A stretch of 64,000 bases of DNA from a virus (IMGVR_UViG_3300023296_001674), one strand, 5' to 3'; shown: positions 10,776-33,320, counted from the stretch's first letter. Numbers and translations: made by a program. The notes: generated from the sequence alone by a model not told the origin.

Positions 10776-10786
10776 TCAATTAAAAA

Positions 10787-10813
10787 GGGAAGCAGAAATG
10801 CTTCCCTTTTTTT
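10787..10813 (+). terminator. Rho-independent terminator
   Basis: gggaagc (10787-10793) pairs with gcttccc (10800-10806), then T7. Confidence 0.8.
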
Positions 10814-10941
10814 ATGCTTGACACTGGTTTAGTTAATTGCTATGTTAAATCGTCGTTGCCCAAGAAAGCGGGTTGATAAAGACTTGACTGACACTACGAA
10901 GTGTTCTATTGATTAATCATAACAACAAAAAGGAACCGAGT

Positions 10942-11301: not shown

Positions 11302-11704
11302 AGCCGTAACGCAATATGAAACATTCGACGGAAAAGTATTCTCCGACGAAAATGCCGCTGAACAATGGGAACGCAATACAAATAAAGCAAACGCAATCAT
11401 ATCGATGTTTCCGAACAACGGTCATCTTTCATCTGGCGATTTCTATCAGTTATCAAGAGATTTGATTAGCACCGCGAGAATTAAACTTGCCGATGCTTTA
11501 ACTCGTGGCGGCTTCGATGACGAAATGATTAAAGCATTTCGTGATAATACCAGCGATGTAATCGGACGCTATCTCGACGACGGCGGTTCAACATATTATA
11601 AAGCATGGTGGTTATTTTCTTGTATTGACAATCAAGGGCGGATGTTCAATCAACCGTTCTTTGCCAATAATCCAAGAGAAATAAGAGATGAAGTTTCCTA
11701 TTGA
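11294..11704 (+). CDS. Hypothetical protein
   Basis: ORF track; 8-nt overlap with the previous gene. Confidence 0.7.
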   Translation: MPKAVTQYETFDGKVFSDENAAEQWERNTNKANAIISMFPNNGHLSSGDFYQLSRDLISTARIKLADALTRGGFDDEMIKAFRDNTSDVIGRYLDDGGSTYYKAWWLFSCIDNQGRMFNQPFFANNPREIRDEVSY

Positions 11705-12435
11705 TTCTTCCAATCATTTTCCCATATCGTGACAAGATTATAGCCGTGAGATTTAATAAGAGTCTCACGGTTCATAGTCTTTTGATATAACTCGCCGAAT
11801 GATTTTTTATTATTGGTGTTGATATGTTCGGGATTGTGTGTATTAGGATTCCCATGCCAATAATCACCATAGAACTCATATATGGTATTTGTGTCAGGGT
11901 CATAACCGTCTGGATATATCCATTGATTATTTAATATTAAAGTTCGTCGCCTATAATCATTTGTATCAGGTAATCCAATATGATCAAGCCACGATTTTTC
12001 CATATATGATTTATTCTGTATAGTTAATGGTCGCAACATAATGGCGCACTTATTACATCCATGATTTAAATGTGCTGATGGTTCTTGTTGAAATATTCCA
12101 TGTTCAGGGCAAATGATATTCACCTTTGTATGCGTGTTATGATAATCAACTAATGAATAATTATATTTATCGCCATGTTTTATCAACGATTTTTGTATAA
12201 ATTTTAATGTAGTTCCCCGTATTTTATCTGAATTATTTTTTATTGCACATTTAATACAGCCTTTTCCACTACTAGTGTGCGAACAAGGCGTCTGTTCAAA
12301 TATTCCATGAGTTGTGCATATTATTTTAACTTTGGTATGGGCGGCAATATATATAGACAATGAATAGTCATATCTATCACCATGAATGGCGATAGCATCT
12401 TGAATGAATTTTGAGGTAGTTTTTCTTCTTGACAT
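11698..12435 (-). CDS. Homing endonuclease, two Zn-ribbon repeats plus Vsr/PD-(D/E)XK-like nuclease domain
   Basis: MSRRKTTSKFIQDAIAIHGDRYDYSL...KVKIICTTHG...CIKC repeated twice, then DGYDPDTNTIYEFYGDYWHGNP. Lone minus-strand gene within a + strand gene array. Confidence 0.85.
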   Translation of the reverse strand: MSRRKTTSKFIQDAIAIHGDRYDYSLSIYIAAHTKVKIICTTHGIFEQTPCSHTSSGKGCIKCAIKNNSDKIRGTTLKFIQKSLIKHGDKYNYSLVDYHNTHTKVNIICPEHGIFQQEPSAHLNHGCNKCAIMLRPLTIQNKSYMEKSWLDHIGLPDTNDYRRRTLILNNQWIYPDGYDPDTNTIYEFYGDYWHGNPNTHNPEHINTNNKKSFGELYQKTMNRETLIKSHGYNLVTIWENDWKNQ

Positions 12436-12500
12436 GTGATATCCTTCCGGTTATAAATACATTGGCGGTAGGACTTACCTTCCGGTGTCCATGTGATACA
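12436..12500 (-). promoter_or_regulatory. Conserved homing-endonuclease 5' leader (copy 2)
   Basis: Minus-strand cacatggacaccggaaggtaagtcctaccgccaatgtatttataaccggaaggatatcacATG. Preceded by the 10-bp hairpin gtgatacata/tatgtatcac. Confidence 0.5.
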
Positions 12501-13808: not shown

Positions 13809-14096
13809 ATGGAACTAAACGACCTCCCATCGGTTGCAGCAATGCACCAACACAAGAACCCCGATCAGAAACGGAATGAACGTCGTATGCAGGAATTTAT
13901 AACTGACGATATGATACACCCCGACGAGCCAGCACCACAACATAGGTCGCCTTCGTTGTTGAATGACACCGCCTCGACAGTTGTGTTCGAGGCTGGCATT
14001 GATACACCGCAAATGAGCCGCGATTGTATCATTGCTATATATGAAAAAATATTGGGTGGCAATCCAGAAACTGAACTTAAAAATCTTTTTGCTTGA
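13809..14096 (+). CDS. Hypothetical protein (possibly leaderless mRNA)
   Basis: Track ORF trimmed to ATG 13809. TTGACT-16-TTAAAT ends 6 nt before the ATG and there is no RBS. Confidence 0.55.
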   Translation: MELNDLPSVAAMHQHKNPDQKRNERRMQEFITDDMIHPDEPAPQHRSPSLLNDTASTVVFEAGIDTPQMSRDCIIAIYEKILGGNPETELKNLFA

Positions 14097-17216: not shown

Positions 17217-17451
17217 TACATTTGCAAAAGGCGACAGCGTTCGCGTGCATCATCAGTATACGCATTTCACCACCATTGGTGTTGATATGACTGTCACCGA
17301 CGTTGTCATTGAAGACGTTGACGGCGAACTGGTAACGTTTTATGAAACCAATAAGCCATGTTCAGTTAATGGCCCATATTACAACGACTTTGAGTTGGTC
17401 AAACTGGACGATACATCGAAACCATTTATCTTTAAGATGGCAATCGCATAG
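17209..17451 (+). CDS. Hypothetical protein
   Basis: ORF track; 8-nt overlap. Confidence 0.7.
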   Translation: MINTFAKGDSVRVHHQYTHFTTIGVDMTVTDVVIEDVDGELVTFYETNKPCSVNGPYYNDFELVKLDDTSKPFIFKMAIA

Positions 17452-17468
17452 CTTCCATAGCAAAATAG

Positions 17469-17512
17469 CCATAGCACCTATAGGAAATAACCTATAGAAG
17501 CTATGGTTTTTT
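17469..17512 (+). terminator. Rho-independent terminator
   Basis: ccatagcacctatagg pairs with cctatagaagctatgg (internal mismatches), then T6. Confidence 0.7.
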
Positions 17513-19451: not shown

Positions 19452-19556
19452 ATGAGAAACGAAGGCACACTCGAAGAACGATATGAAATTTATAAAACCA
19501 ACGCGGAACTTTTGGGTTGGTACATTAAAACTTTTGATGAATGGATGAACAGCTAA
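19452..19556 (+). CDS. Small hypothetical protein (34 aa)
   Basis: Not in the ORF track. GGAG RBS at 19441-19445. MRNEGTLEERYEIYKTNAELLGWYIKTFDEWMNS. Terminator follows. Confidence 0.5.
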   Translation: MRNEGTLEERYEIYKTNAELLGWYIKTFDEWMNS

Positions 19557-19621
19557 AAAGGAGACGGGGTTCGCCCCGTTTTCTTTTAGGTATATATTCC
19601 AGAAAAAACTCATCCCTCCCT
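19555..19621 (-). ncRNA. Predicted ~67-nt RNA from copy E (micro-ORF MSFFWNIYLKENG...)
   Basis: Predicted +1 at 19621. Ends at hairpin 19579-19564 plus a U5 run. Confidence 0.35.
19564..19587. terminator. Bidirectional terminator
   Basis: acggggttcgccccgt hairpin, T-rich after and A5 before. Confidence 0.75.
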
Positions 19622-19655
19622 ACCGTAATAATACCACAATCAACCAAAGAGTCAA
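19610..19655 (-). promoter_or_regulatory. AGGGAGGGATGA-class promoter, copy E
   Basis: Minus strand: TTGACT (19655-19650), 16 nt, TATTAT (19633-19628), 6 nt, 12-mer 19621-19610. Confidence 0.6.
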
Positions 19656-19666
19656 GCGTTAAAGAC

Positions 19667-19788
19667 AAAAAAAGACCCGCCAATTATTAGCGAGTCTTTT
19701 TTCTTTCTCAGGGTACGCCCTCCGATAGCCGAAGGGCAAAATGAATTCGCTACTTAACCGATCCCTCAATTATTTTCGCTGCATCAGA
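19667..19788 (-). ncRNA. Candidate ~120-nt small RNA
   Basis: Minus promoter TTGACT (19823-19818), 17 nt, TATATT (19800-19795). Internal hairpin CCCUUCGGCUAUCGGAGGG. Terminator AGACUCGC/GCGGGUCU plus U7, which pairs fully (one G-U) only on the minus strand. No plausible ORF. Confidence 0.45.
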
Positions 19789-19899
19789 AGTTATAATATA
19801 CCACCTACATTAAAAAGAGTCAACATCTATTATTCGCTTGACTATGGTTCAGTTATGTTCTATGTTTAATCATCAATAACAAATAGAAAGGTTTCAACC

Positions 19900-20445
19900 A
19901 TGAAAATCAAACACGCAAAATTCGGACTGGCAGCAAAGAACATCAAGGTATCTGATACGGATGATGGATATATGTGGAGTGCATCTTTTTATCTTGATGG
20001 TGCAAAAATTGGAACTGCACACGATCAAGGGCATGGCGGCGAAATGAATACACGCGGCATAGATAAAACGGCAATGGCGAAAATCGAAACATATGCGGCA
20101 AGTTTGCCACATGATACCACTTACGGACTCGATATGGCACAAAGTGCCGAAATTGTTCTTGAAGAAAACGCAATGAGTACCGATTCATTCAACAGCGTTC
20201 TAAAGAAAACAAAAGCCGCATTGCGAAAGAAAGTTATGGCAAAAGGTAATAAAGAAGGAATTTTTCGCACTTGGAAAATTCCCACTGGTATGACTGCTGA
20301 AACGAAAATGACTAAACTCCGCGAACAAAAAATCGGTGAAACGTTTGAATTTTTGAACGAACTACCACCAGAAGATGCAATGGATTTTCTTTATGTGGTT
20401 GAACCAGAACCCGATTTTAGCAAGCCGTTTGAACTGGTAACATAA
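19900..20445 (+). CDS. Hypothetical protein
   Basis: ORF track. Promoter TTGACT 19838-19843 / TATGTT 19861-19866. Confidence 0.75.
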   Translation: MKIKHAKFGLAAKNIKVSDTDDGYMWSASFYLDGAKIGTAHDQGHGGEMNTRGIDKTAMAKIETYAASLPHDTTYGLDMAQSAEIVLEENAMSTDSFNSVLKKTKAALRKKVMAKGNKEGIFRTWKIPTGMTAETKMTKLREQKIGETFEFLNELPPEDAMDFLYVVEPEPDFSKPFELVT

Positions 20446-21514: not shown

Positions 21515-21554
21515 TTGACTCTGGTGTAGTTAGTTCGTATATTAACTACACCAG
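21515..21554 (+). promoter_or_regulatory. Stem-loop promoter (12-bp perfect palindrome arms)
   Basis: TTGACT 21515-21520, 17 nt, TATATT 21538-21543. Arms ctggtgtagtta 21521-21532 and taactacaccag 21543-21554. Identical copy at 29314-29353. Confidence 0.7.
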
Positions 21555-21570
21555 AACAAAGGAACTGAAT

Positions 21571-24273: not shown

Positions 24274-24519
24274 ATGAGAAAAACAATTTTTGCTAACGTT
24301 GATCGCAAGCCTCACCAAGCACCCGGCGGCGAGTTTGAAGTTTTCGACACCGCCACTTCGATGACTATGACGACGGGTATGGGTTGGAAGGCAGCATGGG
24401 AAGAATTCGATAAACTCCACGTTGACGGCGATAACTTAGACGTTCGCCCAAGCACCCCAATTCCTGTTGTTGGTTTCGTTGGTAATATCAATCCGTTATT
24501 GTTGACCGAATTTCGTTAA
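24274..24519 (+). CDS. Hypothetical protein
   Basis: Track ORF trimmed to ATG 24274, downstream of promoter TTGACA 24214-24219 / TATGTT 24237-24242. Confidence 0.65.
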   Translation: MRKTIFANVDRKPHQAPGGEFEVFDTATSMTMTTGMGWKAAWEEFDKLHVDGDNLDVRPSTPIPVVGFVGNINPLLLTEFR

Positions 24520-24551
24520 AAGTTTCATGGTAAACTAAGGGTTTTCCCCTA

Positions 24552-24591
24552 CCCGGTGAATTGAGCGCAAGTTCTTCATCGGGATTTTTTT
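24552..24591 (+). terminator. Rho-independent terminator
   Basis: cccggtgaa pairs with ttcatcggg (one G-U), then T7. Confidence 0.7.
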
Positions 24592-24629
24592 GTCTTGACA
24601 TTATTAAAACGTCGTGGTATAGTTAAATC

Positions 24630-24742
24630 TAAATAGGGTGAAAGTTCAGTTAGACCTAGTTCAAGTAGCCCGAACATTATAAAGATGAATAATTCTTAAA
24701 CAAACATAAAGGGAAACACCGGAATGATTCCGGTGTTTTTTT
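24630..24742 (+). ncRNA. Candidate ~113-nt small RNA with its own promoter and terminator
   Basis: TTGACA 24595-24600, 17 nt, TATAGT 24618-24623. Terminator acaccgg/ccggtgt (24716-24736) plus T7. Only a 4-codon ORF inside. Confidence 0.5.
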
Positions 24743-24753
24743 GTCTGGAACCC

Positions 24754-24807
24754 ATAGCATCAACAGGTTTTTTCCTATAGCATCAACAGGTTTTTTCCTA
24801 TAGCATC
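24754..24807 (+). repeat. 23-bp tandem repeat x2.3 (atagcatcaacaggttttttcct)
   Basis: Units at 24754-24776 and 24777-24799, partial unit 24800-24807. Immediately upstream of promoter TTGACT 24823-24828. Confidence 0.85.
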
Positions 24808-24880
24808 TATGGAATTTTCCCCTTGACTCCTATGGCTTTACTTGCTATGGTTCTATCAATTCAAACGAAAGGACAATATT

Positions 24881-25327
24881 ATGATTACCGGAAGTCGCGC
24901 ACGAATATTGGCAGAAACCACTTGGGGAACTGGTGGGACTCACTCTGCAAGAACCAATCGCAAAGGTGCATTCTATTATTCGTGTTCAGGACATGGTGGA
25001 TACATCGTCGACGGTAATGCCCTAACCGTTGCGGAGCGTGATCACATAGACCGATTTAAAAAACCTGAATATGTATGGGCAATTATCAACGATGAAACCA
25101 GTGCGGTTCGTAAAACATCGAACCCGTTTTCAACTAAACGTTTCTTTGCCCATATGCGCGTAGGTGAAAGACTGGACAAAAACTATCCGATTTATTATTT
25201 TGAAGAAGATTGCGACTGGTCAATCCTTGAAAAGTTCACTGACATTCGCGCAGGTGGTAAGGATACCGACGCAGATACAATTCTCAATATATTCTATCGC
25301 TGGTGCCATGATCGCGAGGCGGCATAA
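24881..25327 (+). CDS. Hypothetical protein
   Basis: Track ORF trimmed to ATG 24881 after AAAGGA. MITGSRARILAETTWGTGGTHSARTN... Confidence 0.7.
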   Translation: MITGSRARILAETTWGTGGTHSARTNRKGAFYYSCSGHGGYIVDGNALTVAERDHIDRFKKPEYVWAIINDETSAVRKTSNPFSTKRFFAHMRVGERLDKNYPIYYFEEDCDWSILEKFTDIRAGGKDTDADTILNIFYRWCHDREAA

Positions 25328-25427: not shown

Positions 25428-25577
25428 GCGTTTTTTATGGCGCAAGATTATTACAAAATTAAGTGAAACAAAGTAATAAAATAATGCATTATTCGGTTGA
25501 CCATGTTACAGTTATTTGCTATATTTAAATTGTTCCAAGGCACTAACGCCTAACACAGATTGAAAGGGAACCACAAA

Positions 25578-26153: not shown

Positions 26154-26201
26154 TCATCCCTCCCTGATACAAAATTACCACGTTTACCCCATACGAGTCA
26201 A
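26154..26201 (-). promoter_or_regulatory. AGGGAGGGATGA-class promoter, copy H
   Basis: Minus strand: TTGACT (26201-26196), 18 nt, TAATTT (26177-26172), 6 nt, 12-mer 26165-26154. Confidence 0.55.
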
Positions 26202-26217
26202 CACTTAATTTATTTTT

Positions 26218-26277
26218 ATTTAGGGGGTTGACTCATCTGATGCCTACCTTTATAACTACAAATAGAAACCAACCACA
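26218..26277 (+). repeat. 60-bp direct repeat (promoter plus UTR cassette), copy 1
   Basis: atttagggggttgactcatctgatgcctacctttataactacaaatagaaaccaaccaca, identical to 26713-26772. Contains TTGACT 26228-26233 / TATAAC 26251-26256. Confidence 0.9.
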
Positions 26278-26712: not shown

Positions 26713-26772
26713 ATTTAGGGGGTTGACTCATCTGATGCCTACCTTTATAACTACAAATAGAAACCAACCACA
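26713..26772 (+). repeat. 60-bp direct repeat (promoter plus UTR cassette), copy 2
   Basis: Identical to 26218-26277. TTGACT 26723-26728 / TATAAC 26746-26751. Confidence 0.9.
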
Positions 26773-27277: not shown

Positions 27278-27431
27278 CACTTATTTTCGCCCCCAAATTT
27301 CAGGCATCACCCAATCTTACCACGTTTTCGAATTACAAGTCAACCCCCTATTTTAATTCATTTAAGGGGTTGACTCTGTTTGGGTTGGGTAGTAATATCC
27401 CTTTATCAACTTAACAAAAGGAAACAAACAC

Positions 27432-27821
27432 ATGGATTCATTAAACGTTTTTGCGGATTCGAAAGTTGGCGATGGTGCAACGATCAATATGTATAGCGAT
27501 TCAAAGGCTTGCACGATTGTGGCGATTAGTGATAAGCGTATCACGGTTCAATATGACGATGTTAAATTGTTGAACGGTGCGAAATCTGGCGAACCCGATG
27601 CACTGGTTTTTGATGTAGGCGGATTTTCCGCACACTGTTCAGGTCGCCAGCGTTGGGAAACAACACCAAACCCCGAAGGCGGCAAGGTGACTTATTCCCT
27701 GCGCAAGTGGAACGACTACAAAAATGAACCAGTTATGCGGTGGGCACCAGTTGGCAGCAAACGCCACGAAGGTTCAGGCTTAACCGAAGGAAGGCATCAC
27801 CACTACGATTTCAATTTCTAG
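27432..27821 (+). CDS. Hypothetical protein
   Basis: ORF track. Promoter TTGACT 27370-27375 / TAATAT 27393-27398. Confidence 0.75.
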   Translation: MDSLNVFADSKVGDGATINMYSDSKACTIVAISDKRITVQYDDVKLLNGAKSGEPDALVFDVGGFSAHCSGRQRWETTPNPEGGKVTYSLRKWNDYKNEPVMRWAPVGSKRHEGSGLTEGRHHHYDFNF

Positions 27822-27836
27822 GCACAAGGAAAAAGG

Positions 27837-27870
27837 AGAGTCAAGAGAAATCTTGACTTTTCTTTTTTTA
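27837..27870. terminator. Bidirectional terminator carrying TTGACT in its arm
   Basis: agtcaaga-gaaa-tcttgact (27839-27858), then a T-rich run. Confidence 0.75.
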
Positions 27871-27893
27871 TTTTTTCCGCCGCCAAAAAAAGG

Positions 27894-27939
27894 TCATCCC
27901 TCCCTACCACCATAATACACTATTCGAACAACGAGTCAA
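27894..27939 (-). promoter_or_regulatory. AGGGAGGGATGA-class promoter, copy K
   Basis: Minus strand: TTGACT (27939-27934), 16 nt, TATTAT (27917-27912), 6 nt, 12-mer 27905-27894. Confidence 0.6.
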
Positions 27940-27947
27940 GACTATAA

Positions 27948-28074
27948 ACGGGGAACCACGAATGATTCCCCGTTTTCTTTTCTATAATGGCTTGGCTTGC
28001 CGTGTCGCCAGACGATTAGATCATGATGTCAAATCCTTCCGTTAATTTTTATCCGGTGTTTGAACTTACTCTCT
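27948..28074 (-). ncRNA. Candidate ~125-nt small RNA, with similarity to the homing-endonuclease leader
   Basis: Minus promoter AAGTGTTGACA (28107-28102), 16 nt, TATTAT (28085-28080). Terminator acggggaa/ttccccgt (27948-27973). Contains ACACCGGA...CGGAAGGAUUUGACAUCAUGAUCUAA, a two-codon ORF. Confidence 0.4.
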
Positions 28075-28180
28075 ACACCATAATACATTAAACAAAATAG
28101 ATGTCAACACTTATTTTAGGGGTTGACACTAACAATCGAAACCGCTATAACTGTATCAACTTAACCAAAAGGAACACCCA

Positions 28181-28390
28181 ATGTCAAACCAAGCATTTGT
28201 AGTTTATAACGGCAAAATCACAGTCAAGACTGAGATTTACGACGGCGGTTTATATTTCGCCGACACCGTGAAAGAAGTGACACAACGCTTGCGCGATTGC
28301 GAGACGTTGGTTGTTAAATCTGGCAGTGAACGCGACCTTAAGAAAATCGTCACCGTCGCCGACCTTTTCACAAACAATCCCCAAGGATAA
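28181..28390 (+). CDS. Hypothetical protein
   Basis: ORF track. Promoter TTGACA 28123-28128 / TATAAC 28146-28151. Confidence 0.7.
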   Translation: MSNQAFVVYNGKITVKTEIYDGGLYFADTVKEVTQRLRDCETLVVKSGSERDLKKIVTVADLFTNNPQG

Positions 28391-29313: not shown

Positions 29314-29353
29314 TTGACTCTGGTGTAGTTAGTTCGTATATTAACTACACCAG
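29314..29353 (+). promoter_or_regulatory. Stem-loop promoter (second copy of the 21515 cassette)
   Basis: TTGACT 29314-29319, TATATT 29337-29342. Arms 29320-29331 and 29342-29353. Confidence 0.7.
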
Positions 29354-29370
29354 AACAAAGGAACAAACAA

Positions 29371-29829: not shown

Positions 29830-29895
29830 TAAACCCTTGACTCTGATTCAGTTATTCTTTATAACTGAATAATCAGAACAACGAAAGAAAATCCA

Positions 29896-31032: not shown

Positions 31033-31073
31033 TTGACTCTGGTGTAATTGATAAGTATAATTGATTACACCAG
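31033..31073 (+). promoter_or_regulatory. Stem-loop promoter
   Basis: TTGACT 31033-31038, 17 nt, TATAAT 31056-31061. Arms ctggtgtaat 31039-31048 and attacaccag 31064-31073. Confidence 0.7.
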
Positions 31074-31090
31074 AACAAAAGGAATTTAAC

Positions 31091-31386: not shown

Positions 31387-31432
31387 GTTGACTCTGGATT
31401 TCTTTCTGCTATTATACTGTCAGGGAGGGATG
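31387..31432 (+). promoter_or_regulatory. AGGGAGGGATGA-class promoter, copy M
   Basis: TTGACT 31387-31392 (in the right arm of hairpin ccagagtca/tgactctgg, 31371-31396), 16 nt, TATTAT 31409-31414, 6 nt, 12-mer 31421-31432. Confidence 0.6.
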
Positions 31433-31455
31433 ACTTTATTTTATTCCCGCACTTA

Positions 31456-31557: not shown

Positions 31558-31672
31558 ATTTATATAATACCACAACAACCAAACATGTCAACAAAAAAGA
31601 TTCAATAATAACACTTGACTCCGTTTGGGTTGGGTGTATACTATCCATAGATTGAAACAAAGGATTAATCAA

Positions 31673-32654: not shown

Positions 32655-32756
32655 ATGACACACGGTAACGGCAAGATCAGGCGATTCGCAGGCAATCTAG
32701 GGGCGCTAATGCTGGCAGCGCTGGCAGGCTACGCGACGCTGGTGGTCCTAGCATAA
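32655..32756 (+). CDS. Small membrane peptide (33 aa)
   Basis: Not in the ORF track. AAAGGAA RBS. MTHGNGKIRRFAGNLGALMLAALAGYATLVVLA. Confidence 0.5.
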   Translation: MTHGNGKIRRFAGNLGALMLAALAGYATLVVLA

Positions 32757-32959
32757 CGCCAGAACCGAGTCAAGCACTTATTTCACGGTGTTGCACTTAT
32801 GACACAGTCAAGTCTTTTATTATAAAATAAAAATAAAAAAAGACTTGACATTCGAAAAAAAGAGTGCTCGTGCAGTGTTTTGAAGTTTTTTATTTAATGG
32901 ATACCTTACCCTTAGCTCGAAATACGCCAAAATTTTTCAGGCTAAATCGGAACTCTGGC

Positions 32960-33053
32960 TATCGTGACACTTATCGTGACAAAATGTCGCGATACCATTA
33001 TAATGGGTCATTTATTCATCCTATCGTGACATTTGACCCATTATAATGGGTCA
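32960..33053. repeat. Iteron/palindrome block in the 380-bp noncoding boundary region
   Basis: TATCGTGACA at 32960, 32972 and 33022. Inverted TATCGCGACA at 32985-32994. CCATTATAATGGGTCA at 32995-33010 and 33038-33053. 18-bp perfect palindrome gacccattataatgggtc at 33035-33052. Confidence 0.85.
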
Positions 33054-33164
33054 ATACACCCCCCACCCCCTTTTCTATGAAACACTTATTCATTCAATAT
33101 AAAAAAAATTCTGCGCCAAAATTTTAATAAATAATATTAGGTTTTTAACATAGGAACATTTAAC

Positions 33165-33320
33165 ATGAAAACATTATCCGATAAACAACATGCTACCATT
33201 AAAGAGAACATGCGTGCTATTCCAAAAGCATCATATACAGACATTGATCGCACCGCAGTTCTTAAAGAAGAATATGCTGAATTTATAAAAAATATCAACG
33301 AAAGCGACAAACCAGAATAA
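33165..33320 (+). CDS. Small hypothetical protein (51 aa)
   Basis: Not in the ORF track. TAATAAATA motif 40 nt upstream. MKTLSDKQHATIKENMRAIPKASYTDIDR... Preferred over the antisense track ORF 33137-33379. Confidence 0.55.
   Translation: MKTLSDKQHATIKENMRAIPKASYTDIDRTAVLKEEYAEFIKNINESDKPE

Follow-up and report, generated by a model that had tools for sequence, protein, structure and literature searches.

Does the gene-free gap between the genes ending at 24519 and beginning at 24881 in a phage genome harbor a gene for a small RNA (sRNA)? The DNA analyzed, called the window throughout, is a stretch of 64,000 nucleotides (nt) from the virus IMGVR_UViG_3300023296_001674, and in its gap a promoter and a terminator (24595-24745) enclose a segment for which a preliminary description had proposed an sRNA. 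Of that proposal, the ORF-less (lacking an open reading frame) stand-alone unit held up and was joined by a homologue in a related phage contig and by a paralogue in the window, whereas a structured body, an Rfam family or a target was not found. We read the candidate, with about even confidence, as a self-contained early sRNA gene that would be a member of a small family of portable promoter-body-terminator units in very large phages.

The promoter of the candidate (P24595) had been described as TTGACA-17-TATAGT at 24595-24623, and this was borne out by a match to the consensus at 11 of 12 positions, with an extended -10 element (TG at 24615-24616). Also, it does lie directly behind the terminator of the upstream gene, starting four bases past its U-run. 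P24595 belongs to a promoter sub-family with TAT(A)GTTAAATC, to which P10505, P10818, P19838 and P24214 belong as well, every one of these four driving a protein gene. About 85 nt of non-coding sequence lie between P24595 and the terminator AAACACCGGAA-TGA-TTCCGGTGTTT at 24714-24738, which runs into T7 at 24736-24742. The characterization of this terminator as clean was correct: its 11-bp stem folds with -18.9 kcal/mol (z = -3.6) and it is among only three perfect-stem terminators on the + strand of the window. A 3' hairpin with at least six U residues and an A/U-rich single strand upstream of it are thus both present in the candidate. An 11-nt direct repeat (TTTTTTTGTCT) brackets the unit at 24585-24595 and 24736-24746.

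Strict criteria were applied to ask how often such a unit arises by chance, namely a promoter matching at least 11 of 12 positions, a perfect stem of at least 8 bp with at least 4 GC pairs, and at least 6 T in 8; a promoter-to-terminator pair was counted if its members were 40-250 nt apart, and 40 dinucleotide shuffles served as controls. The window contains 23 strict promoters (4.35 expected) and 6 strict terminator sites (0.125 expected). Exactly one strict pair was found in the window, the candidate, and none in the 40 shuffles, so that the unit is real and not due to chance.

The coding capacity of the unit is slight. On the + strand, no ORF of at least 20 amino acids (aa) exists within the body, in agreement with the preliminary description. 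Its statement that the longest ORF has 4 codons is true only for ORFs beginning with ATG inside the body, where a single one occurs (MNNS*); read directly from the sequence, a GTG-started ORF of 14 codons begins at 24638 and an ATG-started ORF of 18 codons begins at 24724 in the terminator loop. The start codons of both are not kept in the homologous unit of the related contig. A tblastx search with the gap as query, covering the window and every locus, gave nothing meaningful as a protein remnant, and no tRNA or tmRNA was found in the window by ARAGORN. At gathering thresholds, the window has 0 matches to Rfam; under lenient conditions the best scores were 14-24 bits against thresholds of 47-100 bits (for instance MicC, 20 versus 90 bits, and sroD, 18.5 versus 50 bits), terminator-driven and far below threshold. 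No called gene overlaps the unit in antisense, as the minus strand holds only chance ORFs of 33-37 aa.

A homologous unit is found on contig L133 (1,679 nt), which carries a 66%-identical homologue of the 148-aa gene located downstream of the candidate. When the whole unit was used as a query in 0.9 Mb of related loci, nhmmer detected the minus strand of L133 at 1163-1041 with E = 0.005; the complete L133 unit extends over 1183-1036 (minus strand) and shares its hairpin core (CCGGAATNATTCCGG) with the candidate. From the -10 element through the hairpin, the two units align colinearly and in register. Both units have the -35 hexamer TTGACA and the -10 hexamer TATAGT preceded by TGn, whereas the spacers differ in length (17 nt in the candidate, 16 nt in L133) and are unrelated in sequence, and such retention of the promoter hexamers and TGn around different spacer sequences is a signature of selection on function. 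The 5' block, beginning 10 nt past the -10 element, reads ATAGGGTGAAAGTTCAG in the candidate and ATAGAGTGATGGTTCAA in L133 (15 of 20 positions identical by our own count, ungapped and in register). Similarly, the pre-hairpin segment with the hairpin reads GAAACACCGGAATGATTCCGGT in the candidate and GAAACGCCGGAATTATTCCGGT in L133, each followed by a T-run, and the smaller blocks TAGTTC and GCCYGA are common to both. The promoter of the L133 unit (11/12, with TG) and its terminator were called independently by the scan. A local alignment confined to the bodies gave p = 0.004-0.009, outscoring 99.1-99.6% of dinucleotide shuffles and also 33 control promoter-proximal regions.

The two units have no ORF in common; the terminator loop of L133 (AATTATT) is devoid of an ATG, and the GTG-started ORF amounts to 4 codons there. 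The preliminary description had raised the question whether relatives possess a protein-coding gene of which the unit is a remnant; none was encountered, and L133, the only relative with homologous sequence, has an ORF-less unit with an intact 11/12 promoter and terminator. The L133 unit, on the opposite strand, is located downstream of the 148-aa-gene homologue, points towards that gene and converges with a unit of another kind, the GGGAGGGAT unit considered below, on one bidirectional hairpin. This arrangement argues against a leader of the 148-aa gene and against the scar of a recent deletion. Judged by these comparisons, the candidate appears to be an autonomous module that kept its working signals while it was moved.

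A third, paralogous unit (P28107, minus strand) was recognized in the window at a distance of 3.4 kb from the candidate, again in a gap, of 359 nt. Its predicted RNA starts at about AGAGAGUAAGUUCAA, its 3' sequence is GAAAAGAAAACGGGGAATCATTC...TTCCCCGTTT, and the counterpart of the candidate's hairpin core is GGAATCATTC. When its pre-hairpin segment and 5' hairpin arm are compared to L133, 18 of 23 positions are identical (our own count); the hairpin arms are GG...CC in P28107 versus CC...GG in L133. The family motif AGRGNGNNNGTTCA occurs 5 times in 1.9 Mb, both strands counted, and three of these occurrences are located 5-11 nt from the -10 element of a strong promoter, namely those of the candidate, L133 and P28107. 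This compares to 0.019 promoter-proximal occurrences expected among 453 promoter-like sites. The candidate and L133 had defined the motif, so that P28107 counts as the independent occurrence (p ~0.02). A hidden Markov model of the three-unit family scores P28107 with E = 1e-18, a value to be read with the fact that P28107 was among the sequences from which the model was built; independent support comes from the promoter-proximal motif and from the 18/23 identity to L133. Common to the three units are an 11/12 promoter with TGn, a 5' block AGRGNGNNNGUUCA about 3-5 nt into the RNA, an A/G-rich stretch followed by a GGAAUNAUUC hairpin, and a length of ~105-125 nt. The middle is unconserved and the units have no ORF in common. 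Retention of promoter, 5' block, 3' hairpin and length around a freely varying middle that lacks an ORF is the usual signature of a family of sRNA genes.

If the candidate is such a gene, host RNA polymerase would start at about 24630/24631 soon after infection and would stop in the U-run at about 24741-24745, giving an RNA of ~111-116 nt whose 5' part would be A/U-rich and unstructured and which would end in a hairpin with a U7 tail. The conserved 5' end would be the working part, either as a base-pairing seed or as a protein-binding site. We suppose, with low confidence, that the partner would lie outside the window, either in the ~500 kb by which the phage genome exceeds it or in the host. 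The cassette would move by recombination at its promoter and terminator ends.

Several results weigh against an sRNA gene. The 81-nt body (24630-24710) has no structure beyond chance (fold z = +0.10), and the consensus fold of the three units consists of the terminator only, with 0 compensatory pairs. Target prediction against phage 5' regions, which the preliminary description had recommended, yielded nothing above shuffles for the genes of the window, as the best duplex with any of their 5' regions was matched by 57% of shuffles; also, no complementary site stands out in the mRNAs of neighboring genes in the phage of the window or in L133, and the window contains no complement of the 5' block. 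The similarity of the paralogue consists of short blocks, and single-sequence nhmmer does not link it to the other units. The 5' block overlaps GGTTCAGTTA, a motif recurring in early-promoter spacers, and this overlap could mean that a DNA-binding site is conserved instead of an RNA function; the 10-mer GTTCAGTTAG contained in the block otherwise occurs solely in spacers, those of 5 early promoters. L001, L009 and L092 (72-75% aa identity) have no such unit ahead of the homologous gene, nor does L134, so that four lineages have the 148-aa gene without the unit; the segments upstream of the homologue comprise 63 nt in L001/L002 (75% aa identity), 130 nt in L009-11 (72%) and 64 nt in L092 (72%). 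Finally, only three members are known, and the five other contigs carrying the locus are 100% identical and offer no population variation.

Searches for further members were negative within their respective scopes. The candidate had no evident paralogue in the window by blastn, and nhmmer and blastn against the first 102 loci returned identical copies only. The unit was in none of 80 loci obtained from a metagenome scan with the 148-aa family, nor in any of twelve further loci around homologues of the 158-aa gene. Neither in the window nor in 147 loci did the three-unit profile detect a further member, and pattern scans of IMG/VR for the hairpin and the 5' block gave 0 matches. A hairpin scan of genome contigs gave 4 matches, all of them inside a conserved coding sequence of GC-rich Alphaproteobacteria, which are irrelevant here. 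The sample for conservation consists of one homologue (E = 0.005) and one paralogue, and three sequences are too few for rates.

The strongest alternative would explain the same features at the level of DNA. A strong early promoter with a stem-loop terminator, perhaps together with an operator half-site, might form a mobile module that makes the ~113-nt RNA as a by-product, an explanation we find possible although doubtful. With equal reserve, it could persist by insulating or punctuating the transcription of the orphan-gene array, by titrating a regulator or by spreading via recombination. There is precedent in the composite promoter/stem-loop motifs (promoter-early stem-loops, PeSLs) that flank orphan genes of T4-type phages and mediate shuffling (Arbiol et al., 2010, PMC2839356; Comeau et al., 2014, PMC4122927). 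As with PeSLs, a strong early promoter adjoins a stem-loop (24552-24623, and also at 10785-10846), the promoter belongs to a family of at least 19 copies, and the surroundings resemble a hyperplastic region, with dozens of small orphan genes and repeated sigma70-type promoters; the candidate is bounded by such junctions and by the direct repeat TTTTTTTGTCT, and its place and orientation changed between the phages, as in L133. Further points in favor of a DNA module are that P24595 is paralogous to gene-driving promoters, that the 5' block with its promoter-spacer 10-mer GTTCAGTTAG could be a protein-binding half-site, many of the early promoters with GTTCAGTTAG in their spacers having an operator-like inverted repeat across the -10 element, that the hairpin might owe its retention to a role in termination or as a recombination site, and that the middle is unconserved and unstructured and no targets were found. 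In contrast to PeSLs, no ORF lies between promoter and terminator and ~85 nt of non-coding sequence are enclosed instead, which were kept in two diverged phages and in the paralogue; the stem-loops have none of the GGGG...CCCC character of the PeSLs of RB49 and phi1, and recombination is only proposed for the candidate. The near-fixed position of the 5' block and the length of ~105-125 nt are more simply accounted for by an RNA product, and a consensus promoter of its own would be superfluous for a pure insulator.

The unit might otherwise act in cis, P24595 being a second promoter of the 148-aa gene whose transcripts are mostly attenuated and whose regulated read-through sets expression, on the antitermination model of lambda PR'-tR'; we consider this unlikely. 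The candidate is located immediately in front of the 148-aa gene and is oriented like it, and extra promoter units 70-230 nt upstream of proximal promoters are common in the window (4160/4254, 18201/18282, 25394/25497, 30283/30376, 31388/31615). Virulent Pseudomonas phages including the jumbo phage phiKZ have candidate non-coding RNAs derived from 5' untranslated regions (UTRs) by premature termination, which are conserved among relatives (Putzeys et al., 2024, PMC10914365). The candidate is like these in its succession of promoter, short RNA and terminator upstream of a gene in the same orientation. However, those RNAs begin where the downstream mRNA begins and keep their place ahead of it in relatives, whereas the gene downstream of the candidate is preceded by a promoter of its own and by a box array conserved in four lineages that are devoid of the unit, and the L133 unit is on the other strand and other side of the homologous gene. 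Also, the paralogue P28107 is oriented away from the closest start of a + strand gene, the candidate ends in a very strong terminator, and no good nut/boxA match is seen in the body: the nearest stretch (TTCTTAAACAA) lacks the GCTCTT core and is like ordinary 5' UTRs of this phage, as judged by eye against the boxA consensus.

A decayed gene cassette, in which promoter and terminator were left over from a recent ORF deletion and have no present function, is in our view unlikely as well, and slightly less likely than a leader. Such an origin could account for the fact that the other members of the P24595 sub-family drive genes, for the absence of the unit at this position in the closest relatives, and for the pre-hairpin segment AAACAAACATAAAGGGAAACACCGGAATG, which is loosely like the usual 5' UTR, Shine-Dalgarno site and ATG of this phage. 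On first-pass comparisons a strain-specific leftover cassette was indeed favored, and it was given up after the L133 homologue had been found: the intact ORF-less arrangement of promoter and terminator in L133 and in the paralogue argues that the candidate is neither of recent date nor in decay. Its similarity to a translation start is not significant either, for ATG 24724 ranks 174 among 1700 ATGs when these are scored by a fixed-spacing position weight matrix, and 85% of real genes score higher, a gapped profile gave no match, and the ATG is not conserved, so that a canonical start there was rejected; the terminator at 10785-10817 likewise shows a AAAGGGAA...ATG pattern by its very nature, and tblastx had given no protein remnant. 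Least probable, in our estimate very improbable, is a micro-protein gene consisting of the 18-codon ORF MIPVFFCLEPIASTGFFL from 24724 or the 14-codon GTG ORF at 24638. An SD-like (Shine-Dalgarno-like) AAAGGGA is found 9 nt upstream of ATG 24724, but this ATG lies in the terminator loop, so that most transcripts would stop 6-7 codons into the ORF. With its poor translation-start score, the loop of L133 without an ATG and a GTG ORF cut to 4 codons, a micro-protein seems close to refuted by the lack of conservation.

As an sRNA, the candidate would in kind be something already known, a predicted phage-encoded sRNA with its own promoter and terminator. The OOP RNA of phage lambda has 77 nt, extends from pO to tO, overlaps the 3' end of cII in antisense and acts via this overlap. 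Like OOP, the candidate is a short non-coding phage unit between a sigma70 promoter and a Rho-independent terminator of the type used by host polymerase; unlike OOP, it overlaps no gene on the opposite strand, is ~40 nt longer, and has no detectable complementary target in the 64 kb. Enterobacterial sRNAs of the Hfq type have an A/U-rich unstructured 5' part that is most conserved at its extreme 5' end, a terminator hairpin and a U-run. The candidate resembles them in layout only, with its conserved 5' end, A/U-rich part and 3' hairpin followed by 7 U, and differs in that no seed-target pairing was found among the 5' regions of window genes and the neighboring genes. To OOP, the candidate has no sequence or Rfam relationship.

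Table 1. Positions of the candidate unit, its surroundings and related units (window coordinates unless a contig is named).
Feature	Position	Strand	Description
sigma70-type promoter (P24595)	24595..24623	+	-35 TTGACA 24595-24600; 17-nt spacer; TGn 24615-24617; -10 TATAGT 24618-24623
Predicted transcript, ~111-116 nt	24630..24745	+	Start 24630/24631 and 3' end ~24741-24745 as suggested by -10 element and terminator
Conserved 5'-terminal block	24635..24649	+	AGGGTGAAAGTTCAG; family motif AGRGNGNNNGTTCA; contains 10-mer GTTCAGTTAG
Variable A/U-rich unstructured middle	24650..24706	+	Weak conservation compared to L133, none compared to window paralogue
3' end	24707..24745	+	A/G-rich pre-hairpin AAAGGGAAAC; hairpin 24714-24738, core CCGGAATGATTCCGG; T7 24736-24742; then GTC
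Context: upstream terminator	24552..24591	+	Hairpin 24552-24583, U7 24585-24591; intrinsic terminator of 81-aa orphan gene 24274-24519
Context: GCYATRGC-type box array and proximal promoter of 148-aa gene	24751..24851	+	Array 24751-24822; promoter TTGACT-17-TATGGT 24823-24851
Paralogous ORF-less unit (P28107)	27946..28107	-	Promoter TTGACA-16-TATTAT 28107-28080, 11/12; 5' block AGAGAGTAAGTTCAA 28074-28060; ~125-nt body; hairpin 27975-27946
GGGAGGGAT motif starts	4195, 18235, 25416, 30317, 31422	+	
GGGAGGGAT motif starts	27905, 27241, 26165, 20519, 19621, 8439, 7261	-	
GGGAGGGAT units in relatives	L001 (4 copies), L009 (3), L023, L133 1007-1018		

The gap itself (24520-24880, 361 nt) is composed of three modules: the terminator of the upstream gene, the candidate unit and an array of GCYATRGC boxes. 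It had been called unusual for a tightly packed region, which could not be upheld, as the window has other gaps of 343 nt (19556-19900), 359 nt (27821-28181) and 408 nt (32756-33165), and further ones of 309, 263, 250 and 238 nt; gaps of 45-90 nt are typical only upstream of ~24 kb. The folded 77-nt segment with the upstream terminator (24520-24596) has -23 kcal/mol (z = -3.0). For the upstream 81-aa gene, no homologues were found anywhere searched.

The box array, which takes up about 75 nt of the gap, is not part of the candidate. Arrays of 5-8 short palindromic boxes (CCATAGC, CTATAGC, GCTATGG, CCATGG), conserved in four lineages, are located directly upstream of the promoter of the 148-aa DUF7007-like gene and, at 24823-24851, also within that promoter. 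Their presence upstream of the homologues in L009 (4170-4235), L133 (225-300) and L134 (120-205), and of a paralogous array at 17445-17512 of the window, argues that they belong to the regulation of the 148-aa gene and not to the candidate. By its appearance, the array looks like a multi-site operator or activator array for some regulator. It holds a perfect 23-nt tandem repeat (24754-24818), through the duplication of which the window array was partly rebuilt. The Logan contigs L005 and L008 both start at 24778, which reflects an assembly break in this tandem repeat and no transcript end.

The 148-aa gene (24881-25327, + strand) encodes a protein that is 100% identical on a 570,549-bp contig and on four short contigs from other samples, and these five contigs are identical to the window across the gap. 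The window is from an uncultured huge phage of ~570 kb. The 148-aa protein belongs to a family widespread in phages and metagenomes, its match to DUF7007 being weak and below threshold. In the family (homologues P0001-P0034), C35, H38 and the motif E108-E109-D110-C111-W113 are invariant, which points to a metal site or else to an active site. Mesorhizobium has distant homologues, as have ~30-110-kb phages in IMG/VR, where an alignment of the family gave only homologues of 24-42% identity; searching IMG/VR with both flanking proteins individually gave nothing. INPHARED (~50,000 phage records) contains no near or distant match to the window DNA, and tblastn with both flanking proteins was empty there.

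The window encodes tail-fiber and structural proteins of phage type, a helicase and a ligase. Between ~3 and 32 kb, it has small orphan genes, nearly all on the + strand and each with its own sigma70-type promoter, so that this early region is reminiscent of the hyperplastic region of T4-type phages. At least 19 of these early promoters (7322-31078) have the common spacer CTTGACAnTGGTTCAGTTAGTTGCTATAA. Conservation of a spacer as TGGTTCAGTTAGTTGC in at least 19 early promoters, for example at 14085, 16274, 21786, 22881 and 24206, is unusual. Many of these promoters have an inverted repeat of 9-12 bp, made up of the spacer and the initial transcribed bases and centered on the -10 element (21515-21565, 29314-29364, 29835-29880, 31033-31078; L001 5940-5978), the arms of which differ between promoters yet stay complementary (CTGGTGTAGTTA...TAACTACACCAG; GGGTAGGG...CCCTACC). 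This pattern points to the operator of a shut-off repressor or to a hairpin formed in read-through RNA.

The GGGAGGGAT units mentioned above are present in twelve copies within ~27 kb (4-31.4 kb of the window). Each has a -35 element TTGACT, often a second TTGACTCTG box in the spacer, a -10 element TATTAT and, after exactly 6 nt, an invariant AGGGAGGGAT(G/A)(A/C), usually followed by a T-run and TGG, so that the predicted transcripts would begin with the Shine-Dalgarno-like AGGGAGGGAU. Copies on the + strand lie 70-230 nt upstream of a gene's own promoter, and those on the minus strand run ~55-90 nt into the terminator of a convergent gene. The ATG of the motif is no start codon: variants have ATA in its place, and the ORFs comprise between 2 and more than 100 codons. 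The core does not vary in relatives at ~70% aa identity, and orthologous terminators show compensatory changes (cGgggaaaatccccCg versus cAggggaaaatccccTg; AcggggcgaaccccgT versus TcggggcgaaccccgA); in IMG/VR, only single, chance-level matches to the unit were obtained. These units could be a family of tiny sRNAs, a 5' stabilizer tag or a specialized promoter class, and they may be a more remarkable feature of the window than the candidate. The candidate was rejected as a degenerate member, given that its AGGGTGA lies 11 nt past the -10 element instead of 6 and that there is no T-run.

Two other ORF-less units were observed. In the window, P31591 (31430-31591, minus strand) has the promoter TTGACA-16-TATTAT (11/12, with TG), ~90 nt of body and the hairpin GGUCAGACGCGAGUCUGGCU with a U-run; the unit folds with z = -2.5 and converges on one hairpin with a + strand GGGAGGGAT unit (31388-31433), as in L133. 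Its architecture is like that of the candidate, and homology is not supported, as the similarity of the bodies is not significant (p = 0.07-0.27). A unit of ~215 nt between promoter and terminator is located at L001 6436-6686 (= L002 1115-1365; 99.7% identical in L023 393-643), directly downstream of the 148-aa-gene homologue, the promoter of which it duplicates; only its promoter matches that of the candidate, and its body is unlike anything in the window, so that homology is not supported here either. In total, the window contains two units of the candidate type, the analogous unit at 31591 (minus strand) and twelve GGGAGGGAT units, all with purine-rich, Shine-Dalgarno-like predicted 5' ends (AGGGUGA, AGAGAGU, AGGGAGGGAU). 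It is conceivable, and in our opinion improbable, that they belong to many portable sRNA cassettes of this clade of huge phages, fired early from host-type promoters, which together act on the translation or RNA-decay machinery of the host, for example by occupying the 16S anti-SD sequence or the 30S subunit or through protection of 5' ends, and not by targeting mRNAs in the classical way.

That functional non-coding blocks can be recognized at the divergence of this clade speaks for the sRNA reading, and such blocks include, besides the GGGAGGGAT units, the 5' UTR of the 158-aa gene when the window is compared to L009. This leader (GTTCCAAGGCAnTAACGCCTAACACAGAnTGAAAGG), with a small GGC...GCC hairpin, is ~93% identical between 25531-25575 of the window and L009 5056-5100, and the proteins of these phages are only 61-74% identical. 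It might be a cis-regulatory element and is worth a look. On L145 (137-2784 of a 2,975-nt contig), a 62%-identical homologue of the 158-aa protein adjoins the gene for a TonB-dependent receptor, which could be a hint of the host lineage or a chimeric assembly. Several repeats were noted elsewhere in the window. An exact 60-nt direct repeat (ATTTAGGGGGTTGACTCATCTGATGCC...) at 26218-26277 and 26713-26772, 495 nt apart, provides two different small genes with a promoter and 5' UTR. At ~26195-26234 and 27335-27376, divergent promoters stand back to back with palindromic -35 boxes (GTCAACCCC...GGGGTTGAC). Three copies of a 93-158-nt segment (96-254, 12085-12177, 12292-12450) are 72-80% identical; two are within the minus-strand ORF 11698-12435 and the copy at 96-254 precedes the first called gene, so that they probably reflect a repeated protein domain or paralogous genes.

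To our knowledge, the cataloguing of sRNAs of virulent and jumbo phages is just beginning and a function is known for almost none of them. If the candidate were only a DNA-level module, the finding would be an ordinary one. If it is expressed, it would represent an sRNA family in an uncultured phage of ~570 kb, with a cassette that shifts place and orientation between relatives, and its conserved 5' block would offer a concrete handle for target searches once a host is given. Expression would also join two subjects usually treated apart, the modular shuffling at promoter/terminator junctions and the evolution of riboregulators.

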